Assembly (NCBI GenBank): GCA_963716725.1
Contig: CAVQUB010000027.1
Span: 32,001 to 96,000 of the forward strand
Direction of reading: 5' to 3'
Origin: an uncultured delta proteobacterium
GTDB lineage: Bacteria; Myxococcota_A; Polyangia; Polyangiales; Polyangiaceae
DNA length: 64,000 nt
Below, piece after piece: positions 7,240-15,011 of this stretch (position 1 is the first letter of the stretch; the number at the start of each line of letters is the position of its first letter). The notes beneath the pieces are model-generated. The model worked only from the letters and a program-made list of their open reading frames with translations, did no database searches and was not told where the DNA came from. The translations under genes were made by a program, and so were the position numbers.

Positions 7240-7692
7240 ATGCAGCTCGGGATGCCCATGAGCGGGATGCCCTCCCTGGGAAGTGTGATGACGCCGCTGC
7301 CCCACTCGATCGACGTGGGGCAGGATGTCGTGACGGCGCGGGTGTTGATGGAGGAACACGGCATTCACCACCTAGCGGTGACCAGCAACGGCAAGATCGC
7401 GGGAGTGGTCACCGACCGCGACATTCAAGTGGCGGGCTCCCTGGCGCCAGAGCGCGAAGGTGAGCTGTTGGTTCGCGAGGTATGTCACATGCCCGCGTAC
7501 GTCGCCGAGGCGGCCGAGCCCCTCGACGTCGTGCTCGACGAGATGGCCGATCGTCAGCTGAGTTCCGTCGTCGTCGTCGATCATTCGGGCCAACTGCTGG
7601 GCATCTTGACCCTCACCGATGTGTGTCGGCTCTTCGCCCGCGCGCTCGAGGGACGCTATCCCCAGAAGTCGCGTCCGGTTCGGACGGGTTAG
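7240..7692 (+). CDS. CBS-domain pair protein
   Basis: Two CBS repeats (MTP...IHHLAV...GVVTDRDI; ...GILTLTDV). Confidence 0.88.
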   Translation: MQLGMPMSGMPSLGSVMTPLPHSIDVGQDVVTARVLMEEHGIHHLAVTSNGKIAGVVTDRDIQVAGSLAPEREGELLVREVCHMPAYVAEAAEPLDVVLDEMADRQLSSVVVVDHSGQLLGILTLTDVCRLFARALEGRYPQKSRPVRTG

Positions 7693-8369
7693 AGCGTCGG
7701 CAGCACGAAGTGCTCTCGCAGGAGCTGCGCCGTGAAGCTCGCGCGCAGGTAGAACCCCTTGGGCATGGCGTCGAAGATCGCGCCGTCGCGGTCGGTTCCG
7801 CGCCGGCGCGAGCGTGAGTTCGCAGCCTTGGGGCGGATCTGCAGGCACTGACCCAGGTGTCCGGTGATGCTCTCGACGTCGCCGCGACCGATGATGCCGG
7901 CCAGCTCTTCCCAATCGAAGCGCAGCGCGCTCTCTTGCAGTCGGCTCGGGCTCCAGATCAGCGGCTCACCCAAGCGGCGCGCCGCGGGCGCGAGACTCCG
8001 CTCCCCCTGCACCGGCACCCACAGCACTCGCCGCAACTTGCGCAGAACCGGCGAGTCTTCCCACTCGAGATTCGCGACCTCGGTCAGCGGAATGGTGCAC
8101 ACGAAGGTGGACTCGACGGGGCGCCCCTGGGCATCCACCGGTAAGGTCTTGAGCTCGACGCCGAGCGCCGAGAAGTCGGGCAGAGCGCGCGGGCCAGCGT
8201 CCGCTCCGAGCACGCGCTCGATGAGCCCACCCACAAAGCCCTTGGCGCGGCGCAAATCCAGCGGGCACGGGAGACCGAGCTCGGCCGCTACCTCTCCGAT
8301 CGTGCGCCCGGCCAGCGCGCGGGCGCGGATGACGAGCTCGGTCTCGGAGCGGGGGCGGGGAGGTTGCAC
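7689..8369 (-). CDS. mutH: DNA mismatch repair endonuclease MutH (MutH/Sau3AI family)
   Basis: KGFVGGLIERVLGADAG...PDFSALGVELKTLPVDAQGRPVESTFVC, LQIRPKAA and GFYLRASFT closely follow MutH; start GTG 8369 (alternative ATG 8417). Confidence 0.9.
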   Translation of the reverse strand: MQPPRPRSETELVIRARALAGRTIGEVAAELGLPCPLDLRRAKGFVGGLIERVLGADAGPRALPDFSALGVELKTLPVDAQGRPVESTFVCTIPLTEVANLEWEDSPVLRKLRRVLWVPVQGERSLAPAARRLGEPLIWSPSRLQESALRFDWEELAGIIGRGDVESITGHLGQCLQIRPKAANSRSRRRGTDRDGAIFDAMPKGFYLRASFTAQLLREHFVLPTL

Positions 8370-8402
8370 CAAGGCCGCTTCGACGATATCCGGAAGAGGC
8401 CG

Positions 8403-9950
8403 ATGCTCCTCCGACATTCAGCGCTCCTTGCCTGCTTCGCCCTGCTGGCCTGCACCAGCCGGGAACCGAAGCAGCATCCTCCCGAGGGATCTGCGGCGGC
8501 CCAGGCGAGCGATTCCCCCGCCGAACCGGTGCCCCCAGCCGCGGGGGTCAGCGCGGCGATTGCCGAACCCGCCGCGCCTCCGCCGAGCCCGAAGGAGCCG
8601 CGGGTCTACGCCAAGAGCCGCTTCGTCTGGGTCTACTCCGAGCCAAACGCCGTGGGCTGGACGGGGTTTCTGTGGCTCGGAGGCTCGGTGAAACTGAAGG
8701 ACCCCGAGCCCAAGAACGGCTCGGGCTGTACCCAGTGGTACGCCATCGAGCCTCGAGGCTACGTGTGCGTGGACGGTGTGCGGGCGACGCTCGACGAAAA
8801 CGACCCAGCGCTGGTGGCGATGCGGCCCTACGCGCCCAAGCTCTCGACGCCCTGGCCGCACCGTTACGGAGAGTCGCGCGGGGTGGTCCGCTACTCCGAG
8901 ATCCCGAAGCCCTCCGAGCAGCGAGCGCGCGAGTGGGACTACGTGGAGCACTCAGACCGGGTCGCCGCGGCCAAGCGCGGCGAGGCCGCTCACGATTCGT
9001 TGGTCGGAGTCGATCTCGCGCCCGCCACCACCGCCGCCTTCTCCCTGGGTAAGTTGCCATCGACGGTCCATGAGCCACGCAAGCGCTTGATCCCGACCTC
9101 GACGGTTGCGTACTCGGCCGAGGCCCTCGCAGACGATCGAACCTGGCTGCTCAGCGCCGACCTGCTCTGGGTGCCCAAGGACCGCGTGGTGCCGTACAAA
9201 CAGGTGGACTTCAAGGGCGTGCACCTGGGCAAGGACGCTCGGCTACCCCTGGCGTTCTTTCGCAGCAAGGACCGGCCCCAATTCCAGCTCGCCGGCGACA
9301 AGCTGATCGAGACCGCGGAGCGCTTCGAGCGACTGTCCTTCGTCGAGCTGACGGGAGAGCAGCGCGAGCAAGAAGGCAGCACCTACCTCGAGACGCGGCA
9401 GCCGGGGCGCTGGGTGAAGAAGTCCGACGCCGTCGTGCCTACGCCCCAAGAAAAGACACCCTGGGGCGCGCCGGTGGGCGGCGAAGACACCAAGCAGGGG
9501 CCCGCCGGGCGCCGCACCTGGATAGAGTCGAGCGTGTGGCAGGGCTGGATGATCGCCTTCGAAGGCACGCGTCCTGTGTTCGCGACGCTGATCGCGCCGG
9601 GGCGCGGTGGAACTCCGAAAAAGGGCGTCGACGCCATCGAAACCGCAGCCACTCCGGTGGGCGTATTCCCCATCACCGGCAAATTCGCGACCGCCACCAT
9701 GGTCGCACCGGGCGATCTGGTGCACTCCGATGTCCCGTGGGCCCAGAACTTCAGCGGTCCCCACGCGCTGCACGGCGCCTACTGGCACAACGACTGGGGT
9801 GACCGCAAGAGCGGCGGCTGCGTCAATGTCTCGCCCATCGACGGCAAGTGGCTATTCGAGTTCACCGAGCCGCCCATTCCCGACGGCTGGCACGGCGTGC
9901 GCTGGCGCCCGAACGTAGAGCCGGCGACGACCTTCATCGTTCATCATTGA
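8403..9950 (+). CDS. L,D-transpeptidase (YkuD) family lipoprotein
   Basis: Lipobox ALLAC; TPVGVF, HALHGAYWH...SGGCVNVS catalytic His/Cys. Confidence 0.9.
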   Translation: MLLRHSALLACFALLACTSREPKQHPPEGSAAAQASDSPAEPVPPAAGVSAAIAEPAAPPPSPKEPRVYAKSRFVWVYSEPNAVGWTGFLWLGGSVKLKDPEPKNGSGCTQWYAIEPRGYVCVDGVRATLDENDPALVAMRPYAPKLSTPWPHRYGESRGVVRYSEIPKPSEQRAREWDYVEHSDRVAAAKRGEAAHDSLVGVDLAPATTAAFSLGKLPSTVHEPRKRLIPTSTVAYSAEALADDRTWLLSADLLWVPKDRVVPYKQVDFKGVHLGKDARLPLAFFRSKDRPQFQLAGDKLIETAERFERLSFVELTGEQREQEGSTYLETRQPGRWVKKSDAVVPTPQEKTPWGAPVGGEDTKQGPAGRRTWIESSVWQGWMIAFEGTRPVFATLIAPGRGGTPKKGVDAIETAATPVGVFPITGKFATATMVAPGDLVHSDVPWAQNFSGPHALHGAYWHNDWGDRKSGGCVNVSPIDGKWLFEFTEPPIPDGWHGVRWRPNVEPATTFIVHH

Positions 9951-9996
9951 GAGTCCGACGGCCCAAGTCGGTACGTGCCTCATTGGTCGAAAGACC

Positions 9997-10070
9997 GGTG
10001 GAGACGACCGGGATTCGCACCCGGATCTTCGGCTTGCAACGCCGACGCCCTCCTGTTGGACGATCGCCCC
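9997..10070 (-). tRNA. Atypical tRNA-Ala(TGC) or tRNA-like RNA
   Basis: Minus strand reads GGGGCGA TC GTCC AACAGGA GGGC G TCGGC GTTGCAA GCCGA AGAT CCGGG TGCGAAT CCCGG TCG(T)CTCC A CC: a cloverleaf with TGC anticodon and G3:U70/A73 Ala identity if one U is bulged. Confidence 0.75.
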
Positions 10071-10128
10071 ATCTGGCCCCTGCTCGGGGGCCGCTACCGC
10101 CCGCGGGCGGCCTACTTCGTTGCTCGGA

Positions 10129-10185
10129 TCACGTCGAAGCCCCGGGGGGCTTGGCGAGACCGATCTTGTGACGAACGATCTTCAA
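10129..10185 (-). other. Putative uORF 3 (MKIVRHKIGLAKPPGAST)
   Basis: AGGAG Shine-Dalgarno 6 nt before TTG 10185; followed by GC hairpins at 10075-10111, just upstream of the tRNA. Confidence 0.4.
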
Positions 10186-10226
10186 TTCGTACTCCTGATG
10201 TGAAGGTCCGGATCCCATGGAACACG

Positions 10227-10249
10227 GAGGCCGCCTCGCAGGCGGCCTC
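10227..10249 (-). terminator. Strong GC hairpin after uORF 2 (attenuator-like)
   Basis: GAGGCCGCCT-GCG-AGGCGGCCTC on the minus strand; weak U tail (CGTGTT). Confidence 0.5.
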
Positions 10250-10278
10250 GACGCAAACACACAGGTGTCGTGGGAGGA

Positions 10279-10341
10279 CTACCGCGAGCGCGCTCCTCGG
10301 AGCGCGTCGGCGAAACGCGTATCGCGTACGGGATGGGACAT
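10279..10341 (-). other. Putative uORF 2 (MSHPVRDTRFADALRGARSR)
   Basis: ATG 13 nt downstream of an ECF-like -10; stop TAG followed by a hairpin. Confidence 0.45.
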
Positions 10342-10354
10342 GAGTTGGTATTCA

Positions 10355-10381
10355 GACGGATGAGGGTGGAAGAATGTTTCC
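10355..10381 (-). promoter_or_regulatory. ECF-sigma-like promoter
   Basis: GGAAAC-N17-CGTC(TGAA), matching the general ECF AAC/CGT consensus. Confidence 0.55.
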
Positions 10382-10431
10382 GGGTTTCTTTCGAGCGACG
10401 AAACCGGGGCCTTTAGTGGGCAAATTGCCCC

Positions 10432-10467
10432 AAATGCAGAACGGCCGCTCGGGTCACGAGCGGCCGT
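10432..10467 (-). terminator. Intrinsic terminator/attenuator after uORF 1
   Basis: 11-bp stem ACGGCCGCTCG-TGACC-CGAGCGGCCGT followed by TCTGCATTT. Confidence 0.6.
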
Positions 10468-10491
10468 CGCATGCCTCGGGCAACGCGACCG

Positions 10492-10557
10492 CTAGGTGGT
10501 TCCGCCGTCGGAGCCGCGCTCGCGGCGGGACGGATCGGTGAAACCTGCGGTCAACAT
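10492..10557 (-). other. Putative uORF 1 (MLTAGFTDPSRRERGSDGGTT)
   Basis: ATG 10 nt from the IS target site (original -10); stop TAG followed by two abutting hairpins. Confidence 0.45.
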
Positions 10558-10567
10558 GACGGGCGCA

Positions 10568-11063
10568 CTAGTGCCGCGCGGCCGAAGTTCGAGTGGATTC
10601 GCCCCTGAGACCTGCGCTCATTTGGGCTCTCACAGGAAGGGCGGAAGAGCGGAAGGATTTGGGGTGGTCAGGCGTTAGCCTCCGCAGGCCATTTCTGAGC
10701 GCGGTCACGTTGAAGTTGACGAGCAGGCCGACGGGCAACCGCGAAAGGCGCAGATAGGTGATGACCTGCGCTTCGTAAATCGGGAGCAGCCGCTCCACCG
10801 CCTTGAACTCCAGGAGGATACGATCTGGAAGCGACCAGGTCGAGGCGATAGGCGCAGTCAAGGTGTACGCCTTTGTAGCGGATTGGTAGCGGTCGCTGCC
10901 GCTCGAACTTGAGCCGTCGTTCGGACAGCTCGGCAGATAGACAGGCCTCATATGCGGATTCCATCAGCCCTGGACCGAGATGCCGATGCACCTCGATCAG
11001 CGCACCGATCACCTCGTCCGTCCCATCCCCAAATCTTCCGAGCTTTCGCCCTTCCTGTGCCAT
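10568..11063 (-). CDS. GxxExxY protein (PD-(D/E)XK nuclease-like), frameshifted near 10830
   Basis: VIGALIEVHRHLGPGLMESAYEACL...YRLDLV / DRILLEFKAVE...AQVITYLRLSRLPVGLLVNFN split across two frames. Confidence 0.88.
10631..10664 (+). repeat. Left arm of the inverted repeat flanking GxxExxY
   Basis: CACAGGAAGGGCGGAAGAGCGGAAGGATTTGGGG; GGAAG recurs every 8 nt. Confidence 0.8.
11027..11059 (-). repeat. Right arm of the inverted repeat flanking GxxExxY
   Basis: Reverse complement CACAGGAAGGGCGAAAGCTCGGAAGATTTGGGG, 30/34 identical to the left arm. Confidence 0.8.
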
Positions 11064-11080
11064 CCCCGTGTGGTCGGGCC

Positions 11081-11567
11081 TCACTCCGAAACAGTTGCGG
11101 CTTTCTTCGCAGAAAGTGAGGGGATTTTTCTGGGTTCGGCCCACGACTTGGGGCGGTACGACCAGCGAAAGGGTCGGTCGGTCTGCAGATACCACGCGAC
11201 GTACGCGTCGATCCTCGCCGCGAGGTCGTCGGTGCTTCTACTCGAGCCGCTACGGTGTCCGAGAGAGAGAGGGCGGCCGTCCCGAGCGCGGGGCGTCCGC
11301 CAGTCTCTCGCTAGGTGCCGCGCAGTCGAAGCGCTTGCGCCAGTCGTCCACCGTGCGCACGTGCACCCCGAGGAGCCGGGCGATGTCCGTCGCAGGCACT
11401 CCGTCCGCCATCATCAACACGGCCTGCGCCCGACGAACCAGCCGCTGCTCCGCCCTGGCGGGTCGCAACGCCTCCTCGATCCGCGCGCGCTCTTCAGCCC
11501 TCAGCGCGAGCGGAACCGTCGGACGACCACCGTGCGCTCGACCCGCGAACGCGCTGTAGTCGATCAT
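11081..11567 (-). pseudogene. IS630 transposase remnant
   Basis: HTH (RRAQAVLMMADG...IARLLGVHVRTVDDWRKRF...LADAPRSGRP) joined near 11236 to the C-terminal STDDLAARIDAYVAWY...PFRW. Confidence 0.85.
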
Positions 11568-11632
11568 GTCACCCCACTACACCGACGACACGCACACGGA
11601 AAAGAAACCAGCGAAACTTCTGCCGCGCGGCA

Positions 11633-11661
11633 CTAGTAGGCGCGGCCAAGCCCCTTGTCAA
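11633..11661 (-). promoter_or_regulatory. Sigma70-like promoter whose -10 box contains the IS target
   Basis: TTGACA-N17-TACTAG; perfect -35 and imperfect -10. Confidence 0.55.
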
Positions 11662-12347
11662 GTGCCGGGAGGCTGCGCCGGTCGGCGTGCATGCAGACCG
11701 AGCGGCACCTCGAGCTCATCGGCGAGACTCTCGAGGAAGGAACGGAGAAACTCGACTCGACGTTCGGCTTCGCGCCGACCACCCTCGGTGGTCATGGTCG
11801 CTGGCAGGTCGAGCAGCTTCGTGAAGAAGTGATCGACCGAGTACTTGGCGTCGTCGAGCGCACGCTCGACGCCCCACGGGTCGCTCGGATGAAAGTAGCG
11901 CGCATTCATGCGCGCACCCGTCGAAATGCAGCGCATGAGCCCGAGCGCGCCGAGGGCCTCGAGGCGATCGGCGTCTTGAAGAGCACGGCCGAGGAGCGTG
12001 CTCGGCGTCGCGCCGCGGCTGAAGCTATGGTCGCGGATCGCTTCGGCAACCAGGTCGGTTTCGTCGGGGGAAAAGCCATGCTCGGGGAGCCACTCACGCG
12101 CCACGGCCGCCGAGCGCTCGCTGGCCTGACTCCGCTCCGGCGAGTCCTTCGGCAGATTGACGATGTCGTGCAAGAGCGCTGCCGCGAGCGCCACTCGCAC
12201 CGGGACGTCGTCGCCGCTCAGGCGCAGCGTCCAGCGCGCGACCCGCAAGGCGTGCTGAAGATCGTGCCCGGGATCGTCGCCGAGGCCGGCTCGGGCTTGG
12301 GCTATCAGCCCGGGCAGCTCGCGCTCGGCCAAGGTCTGTAGGTTCAT
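11658..12347 (-). CDS. HD-domain phosphohydrolase (YedJ-like)
   Basis: GHDLQHALRV, ALLHDIV, IRDHSFS, LQDADRLEALGALG, DHFFTKLL. Confidence 0.9.
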   Translation of the reverse strand: MNLQTLAERELPGLIAQARAGLGDDPGHDLQHALRVARWTLRLSGDDVPVRVALAAALLHDIVNLPKDSPERSQASERSAAVAREWLPEHGFSPDETDLVAEAIRDHSFSRGATPSTLLGRALQDADRLEALGALGLMRCISTGARMNARYFHPSDPWGVERALDDAKYSVDHFFTKLLDLPATMTTEGGRREAERRVEFLRSFLESLADELEVPLGLHARRPAQPPGT

Positions 12348-13021
12348 GACTCGCCCGTCTCAGCCCGGGAAAATGGCCGCATCCGTCGCCCATCGAAGCG
12401 GTAGTAGCGCGCTCGACGATGACGCACGCCGGTCTCGCGGTCGTCCAGCGGCACCAACGCCGGCCAAGAAAGCACACGCTTGCGGAAGTTCCGCTTGTCG
12501 AGCGCCTCACCGAGCACCGCGAGATGCAGCGCTTGCAGCTCACGCAACGTGAACCTGACCGGCAAGAGCTCTTGCCCGAAGGGCAGTCGCTCAGCGCGCG
12601 CGCGGACGCGCGCCAACGCGCGTTCGAGGGCCTCTGCGTGATCGAACGCGAGTTCCCTCGCCTTCTTCAGCGGCACCCACTCCGCTCGCCGCGCGTCGTC
12701 CCCCGCAGCGGGAACCTGCTCGGACATTCGCACCAGGGCGAGGTGTGCGACGCTGACCACCCAACCGCGAGGATCCCGCCCGGGCTGACTGAAGGTGTGC
12801 AGCTGCTCGACCGCGACCTCGGTGAGCCCAGTCTCTTCCGCGAGCTCGCGGGCGGCCGCCTGTTCGACGCTCTCGCCCGAATCGACGAAGCCACCAGGCA
12901 AGGCCCATTTCCCTGCGAACGGCTCATTGCCGCGTTGGATCAACAGCACGCGGAGCCCGTCGCCATCGAAGGCGATGGCCACGACGTCCGCGGCGAGCGA
13001 GGGCCGCGGGGTGTCACTCAC
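12344..13021 (-). CDS. NrtR-like Nudix hydrolase with winged HTH
   Basis: Intact Nudix box GGFVDSGESVEQAAARELAEETGL, RDPRGWVVS, FTLRELQ...LDKRNFRK. Confidence 0.88.
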   Translation of the reverse strand: MSDTPRPSLAADVVAIAFDGDGLRVLLIQRGNEPFAGKWALPGGFVDSGESVEQAAARELAEETGLTEVAVEQLHTFSQPGRDPRGWVVSVAHLALVRMSEQVPAAGDDARRAEWVPLKKARELAFDHAEALERALARVRARAERLPFGQELLPVRFTLRELQALHLAVLGEALDKRNFRKRVLSWPALVPLDDRETGVRHRRARYYRFDGRRMRPFSRAETGES

Positions 13022-15011
13022 GACCCTTGCCCACCTTCGCGACGAGCTGGGCCAGCTCACGCTCGAAGCCGCCGCTCAAGATCGGGAACCGGCACCACGT
13101 CTTGGGGTCGAGGCTCTCGTCGTCCAAGTGGAAGCTTGGGGCGTAGCGCTCGCGTTTCCACTGGTTGCGGCTGAAGAGCCGGAAGAAGCGCACGACCCAA
13201 GTCAGCAGCTGCTGAGTTTCGTAGCCCGGAAATTCGGCCCTCATTAGCTCCCAAACGTCGAGCGGCGAGCGCTTGTCGCGGATCGCGGCGCGCTCGATGG
13301 CGTCCAGCAACACGTAGGGCATCAGATCACCCTCGTCGGTCTGCCCCGCCGCCGTGGGGCGGAGCTCGGCGGTCGGCTCTTGCTGGTTGATGGCGGCGAG
13401 GGCCGGGATGGGCCCGAAGCCCTCGGGACCCGTGGTCTCTAACCAGTGCAGCCACTGTCGAAGGTACGCTTTGTCGATTCCGGCAATGGGGCTGAGACCG
13501 CCGGCGGTGTCGCCGTCCATGGTGGCGTAGCCGACCGCAGCCTCCGACCGATTGCTCGTCGCCAGCAGCAACGCGCCGCCCAGGTTCGCCAGGAGCCAGA
13601 CGCTGGGCGCGCGAACCCGCGCCTGGATGTTCTGCAGCGCAATGTCGTCCTGCTCCCAGGTCAAAGGTCGCGAGAGCGCCCCTTCGGCGAGCTTCACGTA
13701 GCCTTCTACCATCGCATCGACATCGAGCTCGAAGTGGCGCGCTCCGATGGCTTCCGCGACGCTTCGGGCCGCGTTCTTCGTGACCGCTCCGCTGTTGCGC
13801 GTCGCTTGGTAGGCGGTGGTGAGGAGCAGGCGGACGAGATCTCGCTCGTCTCGACACTCGGCCACGCCCTCGACGTAGGCGAGGCGCTCGCGAACGCCGT
13901 CGAGGCCGAGCTCACGGAGCGCGAAGCGCACTGCCATCGAAACCAGACAGGCGACCGCGGCGGAGTCCGCACCGCCGGAGAGCGACACGACGAAGCCCCG
14001 GGACCGGCTCTTGCGCAGGTAGTCGAAGAGGGCCAGAGACTCCGCGCGGACGAACTCCTCCTCTTTCAGCGAGTCCCCAGCTTCCCAGGCGGGCTCCTCC
14101 AGTCGCGCCGGCTCGATCCGAGCCGGTGGATACTCGTGATCGACGCCGACGCACTCGCCGGCCTCGGCTTCCACCTGCGGCTGAAAGCTCGACAGCCATC
14201 CGTGGCGGGTGCGTGTCAGCTCGACGTCGATGGTCGCGAAGATCATGCTCGAGGTCGCGAAGGAAAAGCGCGGTGAGGCGGCCACCAGGCGGCCCCCCGA
14301 CGCGATCAGCGCGTCCCCGTCGTAGATGGCGCGACCGGCCTCGTTGCCGACGAGATTGGAGTAGACGTAGGTGACGCCGAAGGCCCTCGAGCCCTCGAGC
14401 ACGAGGCGGCGACGTACTTCCTTCTTTCCGAAGGCAAAGTGGCTCGCCGAGGGGTTGAGGATCACGTCCACCGCGTCCAGCGACAGCTCCGCTCCGGGCC
14501 GCTGGGCGATCCAGGCGTCTTCGCAGATCTCGAAGCCGATCTTGATCCCCCCGCAATCGAAATGCACATCGCCGATGGGCACGTCGCGGCCGGCGACCTT
14601 CGTCGTGCCGCGCTCGCCCCGCGGCCAAGGCTTGAACCAGCGCGGCTCGTAGTGGATGCCGTCGCCCGCCAAGGCGCGCTTGGCAGCGAATCCGAGCAGC
14701 TTCGCGTCGGCGACCAGCGCACAGGTGTTGAACACGGCCTTGTTGTGCAAGAGCGGCAGCCCGAAGCTCACCACCAGGCCGCGGGTGTGTTCGATGATCT
14801 CTCCGAGCAACTCCAGGCTCGTCGCGAGGACGCCCGGCGACAAGAACATGTCCTCACAGCCGTAACCCGAGACACAGAGCTCGGGCAGGCACAGGATCCC
14901 AACGCCCGACTCTCGGGCCCGGTCGAGGGCGGACACGATGTTCCGTCGGTTGCCGTCCCAGTCGAGCGGGGTCTGATTCAGGGTGGCAGCGGCGACTTTG
15001 ACCAGGCGCAT
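13014..15011 (-). CDS. nadE: Glutamine-dependent NAD+ synthetase
   Basis: Nitrilase domain (LPEL, EICED, ASHF) plus SLSGGADS, QNIQARVR, NRSEAAVGYATMDGD, PTAELRP. Confidence 0.95.
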   Translation of the reverse strand: MRLVKVAAATLNQTPLDWDGNRRNIVSALDRARESGVGILCLPELCVSGYGCEDMFLSPGVLATSLELLGEIIEHTRGLVVSFGLPLLHNKAVFNTCALVADAKLLGFAAKRALAGDGIHYEPRWFKPWPRGERGTTKVAGRDVPIGDVHFDCGGIKIGFEICEDAWIAQRPGAELSLDAVDVILNPSASHFAFGKKEVRRRLVLEGSRAFGVTYVYSNLVGNEAGRAIYDGDALIASGGRLVAASPRFSFATSSMIFATIDVELTRTRHGWLSSFQPQVEAEAGECVGVDHEYPPARIEPARLEEPAWEAGDSLKEEEFVRAESLALFDYLRKSRSRGFVVSLSGGADSAAVACLVSMAVRFALRELGLDGVRERLAYVEGVAECRDERDLVRLLLTTAYQATRNSGAVTKNAARSVAEAIGARHFELDVDAMVEGYVKLAEGALSRPLTWEQDDIALQNIQARVRAPSVWLLANLGGALLLATSNRSEAAVGYATMDGDTAGGLSPIAGIDKAYLRQWLHWLETTGPEGFGPIPALAAINQQEPTAELRPTAAGQTDEGDLMPYVLLDAIERAAIRDKRSPLDVWELMRAEFPGYETQQLLTWVVRFFRLFSRNQWKRERYAPSFHLDDESLDPKTWCRFPILSGGFERELAQLVAKVGKGRE

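Follow-up and report, generated by a model that had tools for sequence, protein, structure and literature searches.

The 64,000-nucleotide (nt) stretch of DNA analysed here (the window; contig CAVQUB010000027.1, positions 32,001-96,000) carries on its minus strand a transfer RNA (tRNA)-Ala-like gene, preceded by a leader with three short upstream open reading frames (uORFs 1 to 3), a series of hairpins and two promoter-like elements (P1 and P2). A first-pass annotation, made from the letters of the sequence, had described this arrangement as one unit of three stacked uORF-plus-hairpin elements (units 1 to 3 below) feeding a single tRNA. Leader and tRNA-like gene are conserved together in five species of one Polyangiaceae genus, myxobacteria of soil and water, and are present in RNA-library contigs, and we hold it to be very probable that they form a real, conserved and transcribed unit. 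The uORFs, the hairpins, the GGAAAC-N17-CGTC motif and the tRNA all lie on the minus strand where that annotation had placed them; a hairpin that it gave as 10 base pairs (bp) is found at its position, 10249-10227, with 9 bp, to which a U-A pair at the loop could add a tenth. The features are listed in the order of transcription, with positions in the window.

11656-11661, minus strand: -35 hexamer TTGACA of P1, which fits the geometry seen in relatives and is displaced about 1.07 kilobases (kb) from its target by an insertion element.
10568-11637, no strand assigned: multi-copy insertion element of about 1.07 kb, between the P1 -35 and -10 boxes, with ACTAGT on both sides.
10569-10574, minus strand: remnant of the P1 -10 box, CACTAG here and TACTAG in a strain without the insertion.
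10492-10557, minus strand: uORF1, 21 codons and UAG, with no Shine-Dalgarno sequence.
10486-10493, minus strand: candidate antiterminator strand AGCGGUCG, which starts with the A and G of the uORF1 stop and pairs with CGGCCGCU of the T1 5' arm.
10432-10466, minus strand: terminator-like hairpin T1, a 10-bp GC stem (10466-10457 with 10451-10442), loop UGACC and tail UUCUGCAUUU.
10355-10381, minus strand: P2, a motif like those of extracytoplasmic function (ECF) sigma factors, GGAAAC (10381-10376)-N17-CGTC (10358-10355).
10279-10341, minus strand: uORF2, 20 codons and UAG, with no Shine-Dalgarno sequence and its start 13 nt after CGTC.
10227-10269, minus strand: a small hairpin (10269-10256) and hairpin H2 (GAGGCCGCC / GGCGGCCUC, 10249-10227).
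10192-10196, minus strand: Shine-Dalgarno sequence AGGAG of uORF3, 6 nt before its TTG start.
10129-10185, minus strand: uORF3, TTG start and 18 codons, the first ten conserved as MKI[V/L]RHKIGL.
10127-10161, minus strand: long hairpin of 13 pairs over uORF3 codons 9-18 and stop.
10075-10111, minus strand: two GC hairpins without U tracts (10111-10096 and 10092-10075), the second ending 4 nt before the tRNA.
9997-10070, minus strand: tRNA-Ala-like gene (Rfam match 10070-10000), with anticodon loop GUUGCAA (UGC), T-loop UGCGAAU and an extra U in the 3' acceptor strand.
9960-9996, minus strand: conserved stub behind the tRNA, in which homology with relatives runs out about 40 nt past the gene.

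We compared seven members of the genus. The unit is present in the genome of the window (G000) and in four other species (G005, G002, G001 and G004), and the four metagenome contigs that carried it in a metagenome scan are all strains of G004 or G001. Searches of the remaining two members, G003 (96% complete) and G006 (73% complete), and of 376 further genomes of the family did not find it. A pattern at the peptide level, covering the uORF3 peptide only, matched 5 of 401 genomes of the order, all of them in this one genus, and a lone-tRNA pattern scan of the genome collection likewise gave matches in the same genus only. The alignment on which the counts below are based holds six sequences, behind which stand five lineages.

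Homology among the relatives begins at the TTGACA box and stops shortly after the tRNA or, in three species, after a further RNA; in the window a convergent YkuD gene adjoins the point where it ends. Six flanking proteins searched by tblastn against the five relatives' loci (seven locus records) gave no match, and an all-versus-all comparison of 16-kb regions found a Band_7 gene common to three genomes, paralogous kinases and nothing else. Neutral sites between the five species are saturated, identity at the four-fold degenerate sites of nadE being just 0.46-0.58. The tRNA-like gene is 0.85-0.99 identical between species; for the leader, identity is 0.66-0.69 when G000 is set beside G005 or G002, and 0.37-0.57 in comparisons with G001 and G004 (0.46 for G000 and G004). 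Conservation within the unit is mosaic, with islands that are 70-83% invariant beside spacers near 10%. Invariant columns number 19 of 23 in T1, 17 of 23 in H2, 24 of 30 in uORF3 codons 1-10 and 60 of 72 in the tRNA, with 5 of 7 and 4 of 7 in the two P2 boxes. The uORF1 stop and the bases that follow it, which make up the antiterminator strand, keep 9 of 13, and the interior of uORF1 keeps 6 of 59.

All three uORFs hold their places in the alignment. Start and stop columns are retained in six of six sequences for uORF1, as is its frame, and in five of six for uORF2 and for uORF3. The lengths are 21, 21, 21, 17, 17 and 20 codons for uORF1 and 20, 20, 20, 21, 21 and 29 codons for uORF2, the last being the 29-codon ORF that occupies the uORF2 position in G004; because lengths vary in whole codons, their differences are all multiples of three. 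The ATG of uORF1 lies 10 nt after the -10 hexamer in relatives, and 27-29 nt separate its stop from T1. Neither uORF1 nor uORF2 has a conserved peptide. For uORF3, GGAG stands 4-8 nt ahead of the aligned start in all six sequences, and the differences are mostly at third positions (ATC to ATT twice, GGT to GGA, GCC to GCA, GTT to CTT); the start codon is TTA in G001 and TTG in its sister contig L060. Among 51 distinct sense-strand ORFs of at least 8 codons in the alignment, start and stop columns are kept in four or more sequences only by the three uORFs and two N-terminal extensions. Alanine codons are not enriched in the uORFs: there are 1-4 in uORF1 and 3-6 in uORF2, never more than two in a row and at no conserved position, and the variable uORF3 tail of G005 ends in four alanines. 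On the other strand, an antisense ORF of 32-33 codons lies opposite uORF2 (10240-10340, plus strand; alignment columns 358-469 in reverse), and its start and stop columns are kept in four of six sequences.

The hairpins were assessed as seven local helices with 51 pairs, a structure derived from the same sequences, which favours it. With that advantage, 93.4% of cells are paired, versus 35-46% when the partners are slid, and nine pairs are changed on both sides, versus 3.1 ± 1.3 in shuffles (0 of 500 shuffles reached nine). The G.U pairs in the leader helices agree with the minus strand. Compensatory pairs number one in H2 (98% paired), two in the small hairpin and one in the long hairpin over uORF3 (90% paired), which is absent in G004. 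The first of the two hairpins before the tRNA (10111-10096) shows a compensatory change from C-G to U-A. A hairpin resembling the pre-tRNA one precedes an array tRNA-Ala in a genome of another genus (G184), so this hairpin may be a spacer feature of arrays. The T1 stem, 9-10 bp long, has nine of nine pairs without variation across the sequences and therefore carries no covariation evidence.

Comparison with relatives is what lifts these features above chance; taken in this genome alone they are at chance level, apart from the overall fold. Eighteen ORFs of at least 20 amino acids overlap 9990-10600, nine on each strand. The motif GGAAAC-N16-18-CGTC[TG] has 27 matches in the genome versus about 24 expected, and its reversed control has 30. 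A consensus scanner called no sigma70-like and no terminator-like site in 9900-10700, and an Rfam search at E up to 10 gave only chance-level matches in the leader. The overall fold beats shuffles with z = -3.5 on the minus strand and -4.1 on the plus strand. The first-pass annotation had itself cautioned that short ORFs and GC hairpins arise by chance at this GC content; that caution holds for the single genome, and the conservation of the leader across five species goes against it.

The tRNA-like gene scores 50 bits against the Rfam tRNA model RF00005 (cut-off 29; model positions 1-71), and its orthologues score 38.8-49.3 bits; ARAGORN called no tRNA in the window or at the orthologous lone loci. 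Its paralogue is a tRNA-Ala(CGC) that belongs to arrays of 13-15 tRNAs or more in G002, G003 and G004; in G006 the nearest array member is a weaker match (77%) that ARAGORN calls tRNA-Gln. Arrays thus occur in four genus members, and the window holds one tRNA, with no tRNA cluster among the 35 contigs of its assembly. Canonical tRNA-Ala genes for GGC, UGC and CGC are already present in the genome, which makes the tRNA-like copy surplus. Upstream of the intact arrays the region differs and holds no counterpart of the leader. The G3:U70 pair and A73 are tRNA-Ala identity elements, and both are present in the array copies. All lone copies carry a single additional U in the 3' acceptor strand, and two registers are therefore possible: the stem is either continuous, with G3:C70 and C73 (-28.6 kcal/mol), or bulged, with G3:U70 and A73 (-28.4 kcal/mol). 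A T-loop UGCGA with G at position 55 is common to the lone copies and the array copies of the genus. By contrast with the body, where 59 of 65 columns are invariant, the anticodon loop keeps one column of seven, so that 6 of the 12 columns that vary fall within it (Fisher p = 3.8e-5); the anticodons are UGC in G000 and G005 and CGC in G004, each with U33, CGC with C33 in G002, and UCA with C33 in G001/L060. The 4 nt between the last hairpin and the tRNA leave no room for a promoter, so the tRNA must be co-transcribed with the leader.

Metatranscriptome contigs from three runs of one wastewater study cover 9840-10340, 10020-10329, 10122-10272 and 10273-10536. One RNA contig spans T1 and P2, another spans uORF2, uORF3 and the tRNA, and contigs X16 and X17 end at 10340 and 10329. 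The study also yielded a DNA contig about 99% identical to the window, and the RNA contigs carry its variant letters. This DNA contig covers 9300-10572; no RNA contig covers 9300-9839 or 10573-11300, an absence that is not evidence.

Unit 1 holds a candidate switch. For the stretch of nascent RNA that begins at the uORF1 stop and ends with the T1 5' arm, the local minimum free energy (MFE) fold is a single UAG-anchored hairpin in all six sequences (-15.3 to -27.0 kcal/mol). In this antiterminator AGCGG(UCG) is paired to (CGG)CCGCU, the first pairs being formed by the A and G of UAG, and 46 of the 48 cells of its eight pairs are paired. When the T1 3' arm is added, the MFE fold switches to T1 in five of six sequences (-35 to -39 kcal/mol). 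A further candidate, a 1:2 pairing of early uORF1 with the stop region, was rejected; it is only 72% paired and shows no covariation. The folds point to a scheme in which uORF1, a near-leaderless frame of 17-21 codons ending in UAG, would lend the A and G of its stop codon to an antiterminator hairpin that uses the T1 5' arm. A ribosome reaching this stop would cover or melt the antiterminator, T1 would form and transcription would end; were ribosomes scarce or stalled earlier, the antiterminator would persist and RNA polymerase would read through T1. Unit 1 thus has the anatomy of a translation-sensing attenuator, and the odds that it works as one are about even.

Two promoter-like elements may feed this arrangement. 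The geometry of P1, TTGACA-N17-TAnnnn-N10-ATG, is fixed in G005, G002, G001 and G004, and the DNA contig of a related strain without the element reads TTGACA-17-TACTAG-10-ATG; with the -10 hexamer 10 nt before the uORF1 ATG, the 5' untranslated region can have a few nt only. In the window the insertion element splits P1, and the displaced TTGACA matches the loose end of a DNA contig of a related strain (X10). The element is present as 45-52 BLAST pieces at 93-100% identity across the 35 contigs, with ends that cluster at 10568 and 11636/7. Pfam matches identify, on its minus strand, an HTH_23/29 ORF and a PD-(D/E)XK_3 (GxxExxY-type) gene split over two frames; the ORFs scanned yielded no DDE transposase domain. 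We also observed inverted ends of about 22 bp. Because P1 is split, transcription of the tRNA in this genome has to start from P2 or come as read-through from the element. ECF promoters have an AAC-containing -35 and a CGT-containing -10 box spaced by 16-17 nt, and GGAAAC-N17-CGTC fits this consensus in six of six sequences, with a fixed 17-nt spacer (G001 reads GGAAAT). The motif is not enriched genome-wide, so it is conservation that carries the assignment of P2. RNA polymerase entering at P2, downstream of T1, would transcribe uORF2, uORF3 and the tRNA-like RNA; release of this RNA would fall to RNase P.

In three relatives (G005, G001 and G004) the homology continues past the tRNA into a T-arm, a closed acceptor-like stem of 7-8 bp with compensatory changes and a D-arm. 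YrlA is a bacterial Y RNA-like tRNA mimic (PMC4201824), and the order of these parts is that of YrlA. The element lies about 120 nt after the tRNA-like gene and is followed by a Band_7/SPFH gene (L043 8700-8900 in G005; also L045, L046 and L060). It resembles YrlA in layout and falls outside the Rfam family, scoring 29.7 bits versus a cut-off of 69 in a search that also matches 9 of 14 control genomes below the cut-off. It differs from YrlA further in that no Ro60/TROVE gene was found in the five genomes searched (84-98% complete). The downstream part is truncated in G000 and G002, and the YrlA-like element is absent from the window. The "lone tRNA" of the first-pass annotation is therefore lone in this genome, and not in those three relatives, where the YrlA-like RNA directly follows.

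Taken together, we favour a self-contained, genus-specific RNA unit in which a surplus tRNA-Ala-like RNA stands behind a leader of about 570 nt, with unit 1 as a translation-sensing attenuator and P2 as a second entry, and we assign this reading a probability of roughly 0.5. Several observations weigh against it. The P1 -10 hexamers match TATAAT at two or three of six positions by our own count and lack the final T. The ECF-like motif occurs at chance frequency in the genome, and a cognate sigma factor was not found, the genes downstream of the motif matches having been left unannotated. The U tract of T1, UUCUGCAUUU, is interrupted and fails a scanner rule of 5 T in 8. The full-length MFE fold of G004 is without T1, and an antiterminator-like fold stays. 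There is no covariation for the antiterminator because both of its strands are invariant, and its duplex beats only 89-95% of mononucleotide shuffles in five sequences and 57% in G004. Further, since uORF1 and uORF2 have neither a Shine-Dalgarno sequence nor a conserved peptide, their translation is putative. The unit is missing in two of the seven genus members, G003 and G006, and the lineages to compare are only five and mutually related. The RNA contigs give no strand, ends, level or single transcript, and DNA can occur in RNA libraries.

Beyond unit 1, the ribosome-sensing cascade and the two promoter inputs of the first-pass annotation stand in part. In unit 2, a UAG lies 29 nt before H2 in five of six sequences and the local fold joins the stop region to the H2 5' arm; the unit-2 antiterminator duplex is indistinguishable from shuffles (0.30-0.85), which is a further point against our reading, and H2 is almost without a U tract. 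No U-tract terminator was found in unit 3. For these reasons we do not accept a three-step cascade, and what stands of it is the attenuator anatomy of unit 1. As for the sigma70 and ECF inputs, both motifs are conserved among relatives, but P1 is split here by the insertion element and the ECF motif is not enriched genome-wide.

The locus could instead be a row of separate small genes. P1, uORF1 and T1 would then make up a gene of about 120 nt for a small RNA or a small protein, P2 would drive an mRNA for the uORF3 micropeptide, and the tRNA-like fold would serve RNase P processing or act as a 3'-end or stability element, in relatives separating this mRNA from the YrlA-like RNA. An invariant T1 directly ahead of a second promoter-like element agrees with such a layout, as does the fact that uORF3 alone combines a Shine-Dalgarno sequence with a conserved peptide. 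The drift of the anticodon loop, with C33 in two lineages, and the second tRNA-like RNA that follows in three relatives also favour it. However, conservation in the unit peaks in the tRNA body, beyond the need of a mere processing signal, and three lineages keep U33 together with an alanine anticodon. An RNA contig also bridges T1 into uORF2, and the hairpin anchored on the uORF1 stop codon would be left unexplained. We regard separate genes as rather unlikely.

We judge it unlikely, too, that the leader is structured and untranslated, with hairpins serving as RNase or protein sites, ATG and TAG triplets belonging to promoter-proximal or structural motifs, and no sensing of ribosomes. The lack of Shine-Dalgarno sequences and of conserved peptides in uORF1 and uORF2 is consistent with this view, as are the antisense ORF that keeps its columns in four of six sequences and the better-than-shuffled fold of both strands; a GAUC...GAUC pairing also fits the two synonymous changes of G004 equally well. 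Against it stand the uORFs themselves. Counted from the commonest length, each of the four length changes in uORF1 and uORF2 is a multiple of three; five or six of six sequences retain start, stop and frame while the interiors diverge, and GGAG before uORF3 is kept in all six.

Very unlikely is a decaying remnant of a tRNA array without present function, its similarity between species owed to recent transfer: the copy does derive from an array tRNA-Ala, the unit is absent from G003 and G006, P1 is broken by the insertion here, the downstream part is truncated in G000 and G002, and G001 has private changes that include TTG to TTA, but islands of 70-83% beside spacers of about 10% are unlike recent transfer or neutral decay, the stems hold compensatory changes, the intact arrays have no leader counterpart upstream, and RNA contigs cover the unit.

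With respect to known systems, the preferred unit would be closest in mechanism to leader-peptide attenuation of the trp type and to drug-sensing arrest leaders, and in biology to the tRNA array of Anabaena. Attenuation in trp- and his-type leaders is a textbook mechanism, of which pheL is one example. The leader studied here shares with such attenuators a short ORF, a terminator 5' arm that also belongs to the antiterminator, and an antiterminator strand placed where a ribosome at the stop codon would mask it. By contrast, it has no regulatory codon run, uORF1 is near-leaderless and without a Shine-Dalgarno sequence, the product is a tRNA-like RNA and not a biosynthetic operon, and two more ORF-hairpin units and an internal promoter follow.

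Genes for erm, cat and ABC-F resistance proteins are preceded by drug-inducible leaders encoding arrest peptides, for which Arg/Lys-X-Arg/Lys is an arrest motif. The R-H-K of uORF3 presumably fits this motif. A uORF that senses ribosome-targeting drugs is described in one report (PMC12121999). Like arrest-peptide leaders, uORF3 is short and led by a Shine-Dalgarno sequence, conserves its peptide and not its length, and has a hairpin right behind the conserved codons; unlike them, it is followed by no resistance or protein gene, and no alternative pairing has been demonstrated.

The tRNA array of Anabaena is reported to be induced by translational stress and to be controlled at direct repeats at the promoter, with a proposed repressor (PMC8421152). 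The likeness lies in the paralogy between the tRNA-like gene and an array tRNA-Ala(CGC), and in its being surplus to a full alanine set. The difference is that a single gene is present here and that the Anabaena operon is regulated at promoter repeats, not through leader ORFs. Among search listings, no description was found of a leader-peptide attenuator or of leader ORFs before a tRNA gene.

Some tRNAs are non-proteinogenic and donate amino acids off the ribosome, as staphylococcal tRNA-Gly does for cell-wall bridges. The tRNA-like gene resembles these in its deviant T-loop with G at 55, in being a surplus copy and in selection that acts on the body and not on the anticodon loop; it differs in that no tRNA-dependent transferase is linked to it and that G3:U70 is present in one of two equal-energy acceptor registers only. 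A specific role as a stress-gated alanine carrier or a tRNA decoy off the ribosome is conceivable and, in our estimate, quite unlikely; such an RNA would be gated by an unfinished uORF1 or an ECF sigma factor, would toggle between two acceptor registers, one of them with the alanine identity pair, and in most species would be made together with a YrlA-like mimic in Ro60-free genomes.

Genes for tRNAs are usually regarded as housekeeping genes controlled by growth rate. If the preferred reading is true, the unit would tie a spare tRNA in cis to the state of translation and so complement the promoter-repeat control of the Anabaena array. It also offers a natural case of a tRNA body under selection with a drifting anticodon loop, and it is small enough for reporter work.

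Two further matches were set aside. A short ORF in genome G082, MAHIVHHKIGL behind TGGCAC-N5-GTGCT (L050 1490-1560), has three mismatches and was treated as chance, with about one match expected by estimate; its stop follows directly after GL, like that of uORF3 in G004, and it is unconserved in six other genomes of its genus. A 30-nt match in contig C268 of G001 was dismissed because it is located in unrelated sequence.

Other tRNA loci showed features of their own. The intact arrays of G002 and G004 (L013 740-860 and L014 880-990) are preceded by CTGGCACGACTTCTGCG, a sigma54-type -24/-12 motif, which suggests that these arrays may be under enhancer-dependent control; the gene ahead of them, read by eye, is ThiF/E1-like. 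G000 has several duplicated isoacceptors and no tRNA array in its assembly, and its ARAGORN calls include two tRNA-SeC-like genes of unequal length and one call with a four-base anticodon loop (cgcg), the odd calls lying at C13:29480-29558, C32:273764-273861 and C4:29097-29177.

Elsewhere in the window, an ORF at 7689-8417 (minus strand) carries a MutH domain (Pfam E = 4e-28) in this myxobacterial genome; MutH is found mostly in Dam-methylating gammaproteobacteria. At 11658-15011 (minus strand), an HD-domain protein, an NrtR-type Nudix regulator and a glutamine-dependent NAD synthetase are encoded in a row that looks like an NAD-metabolism cluster.

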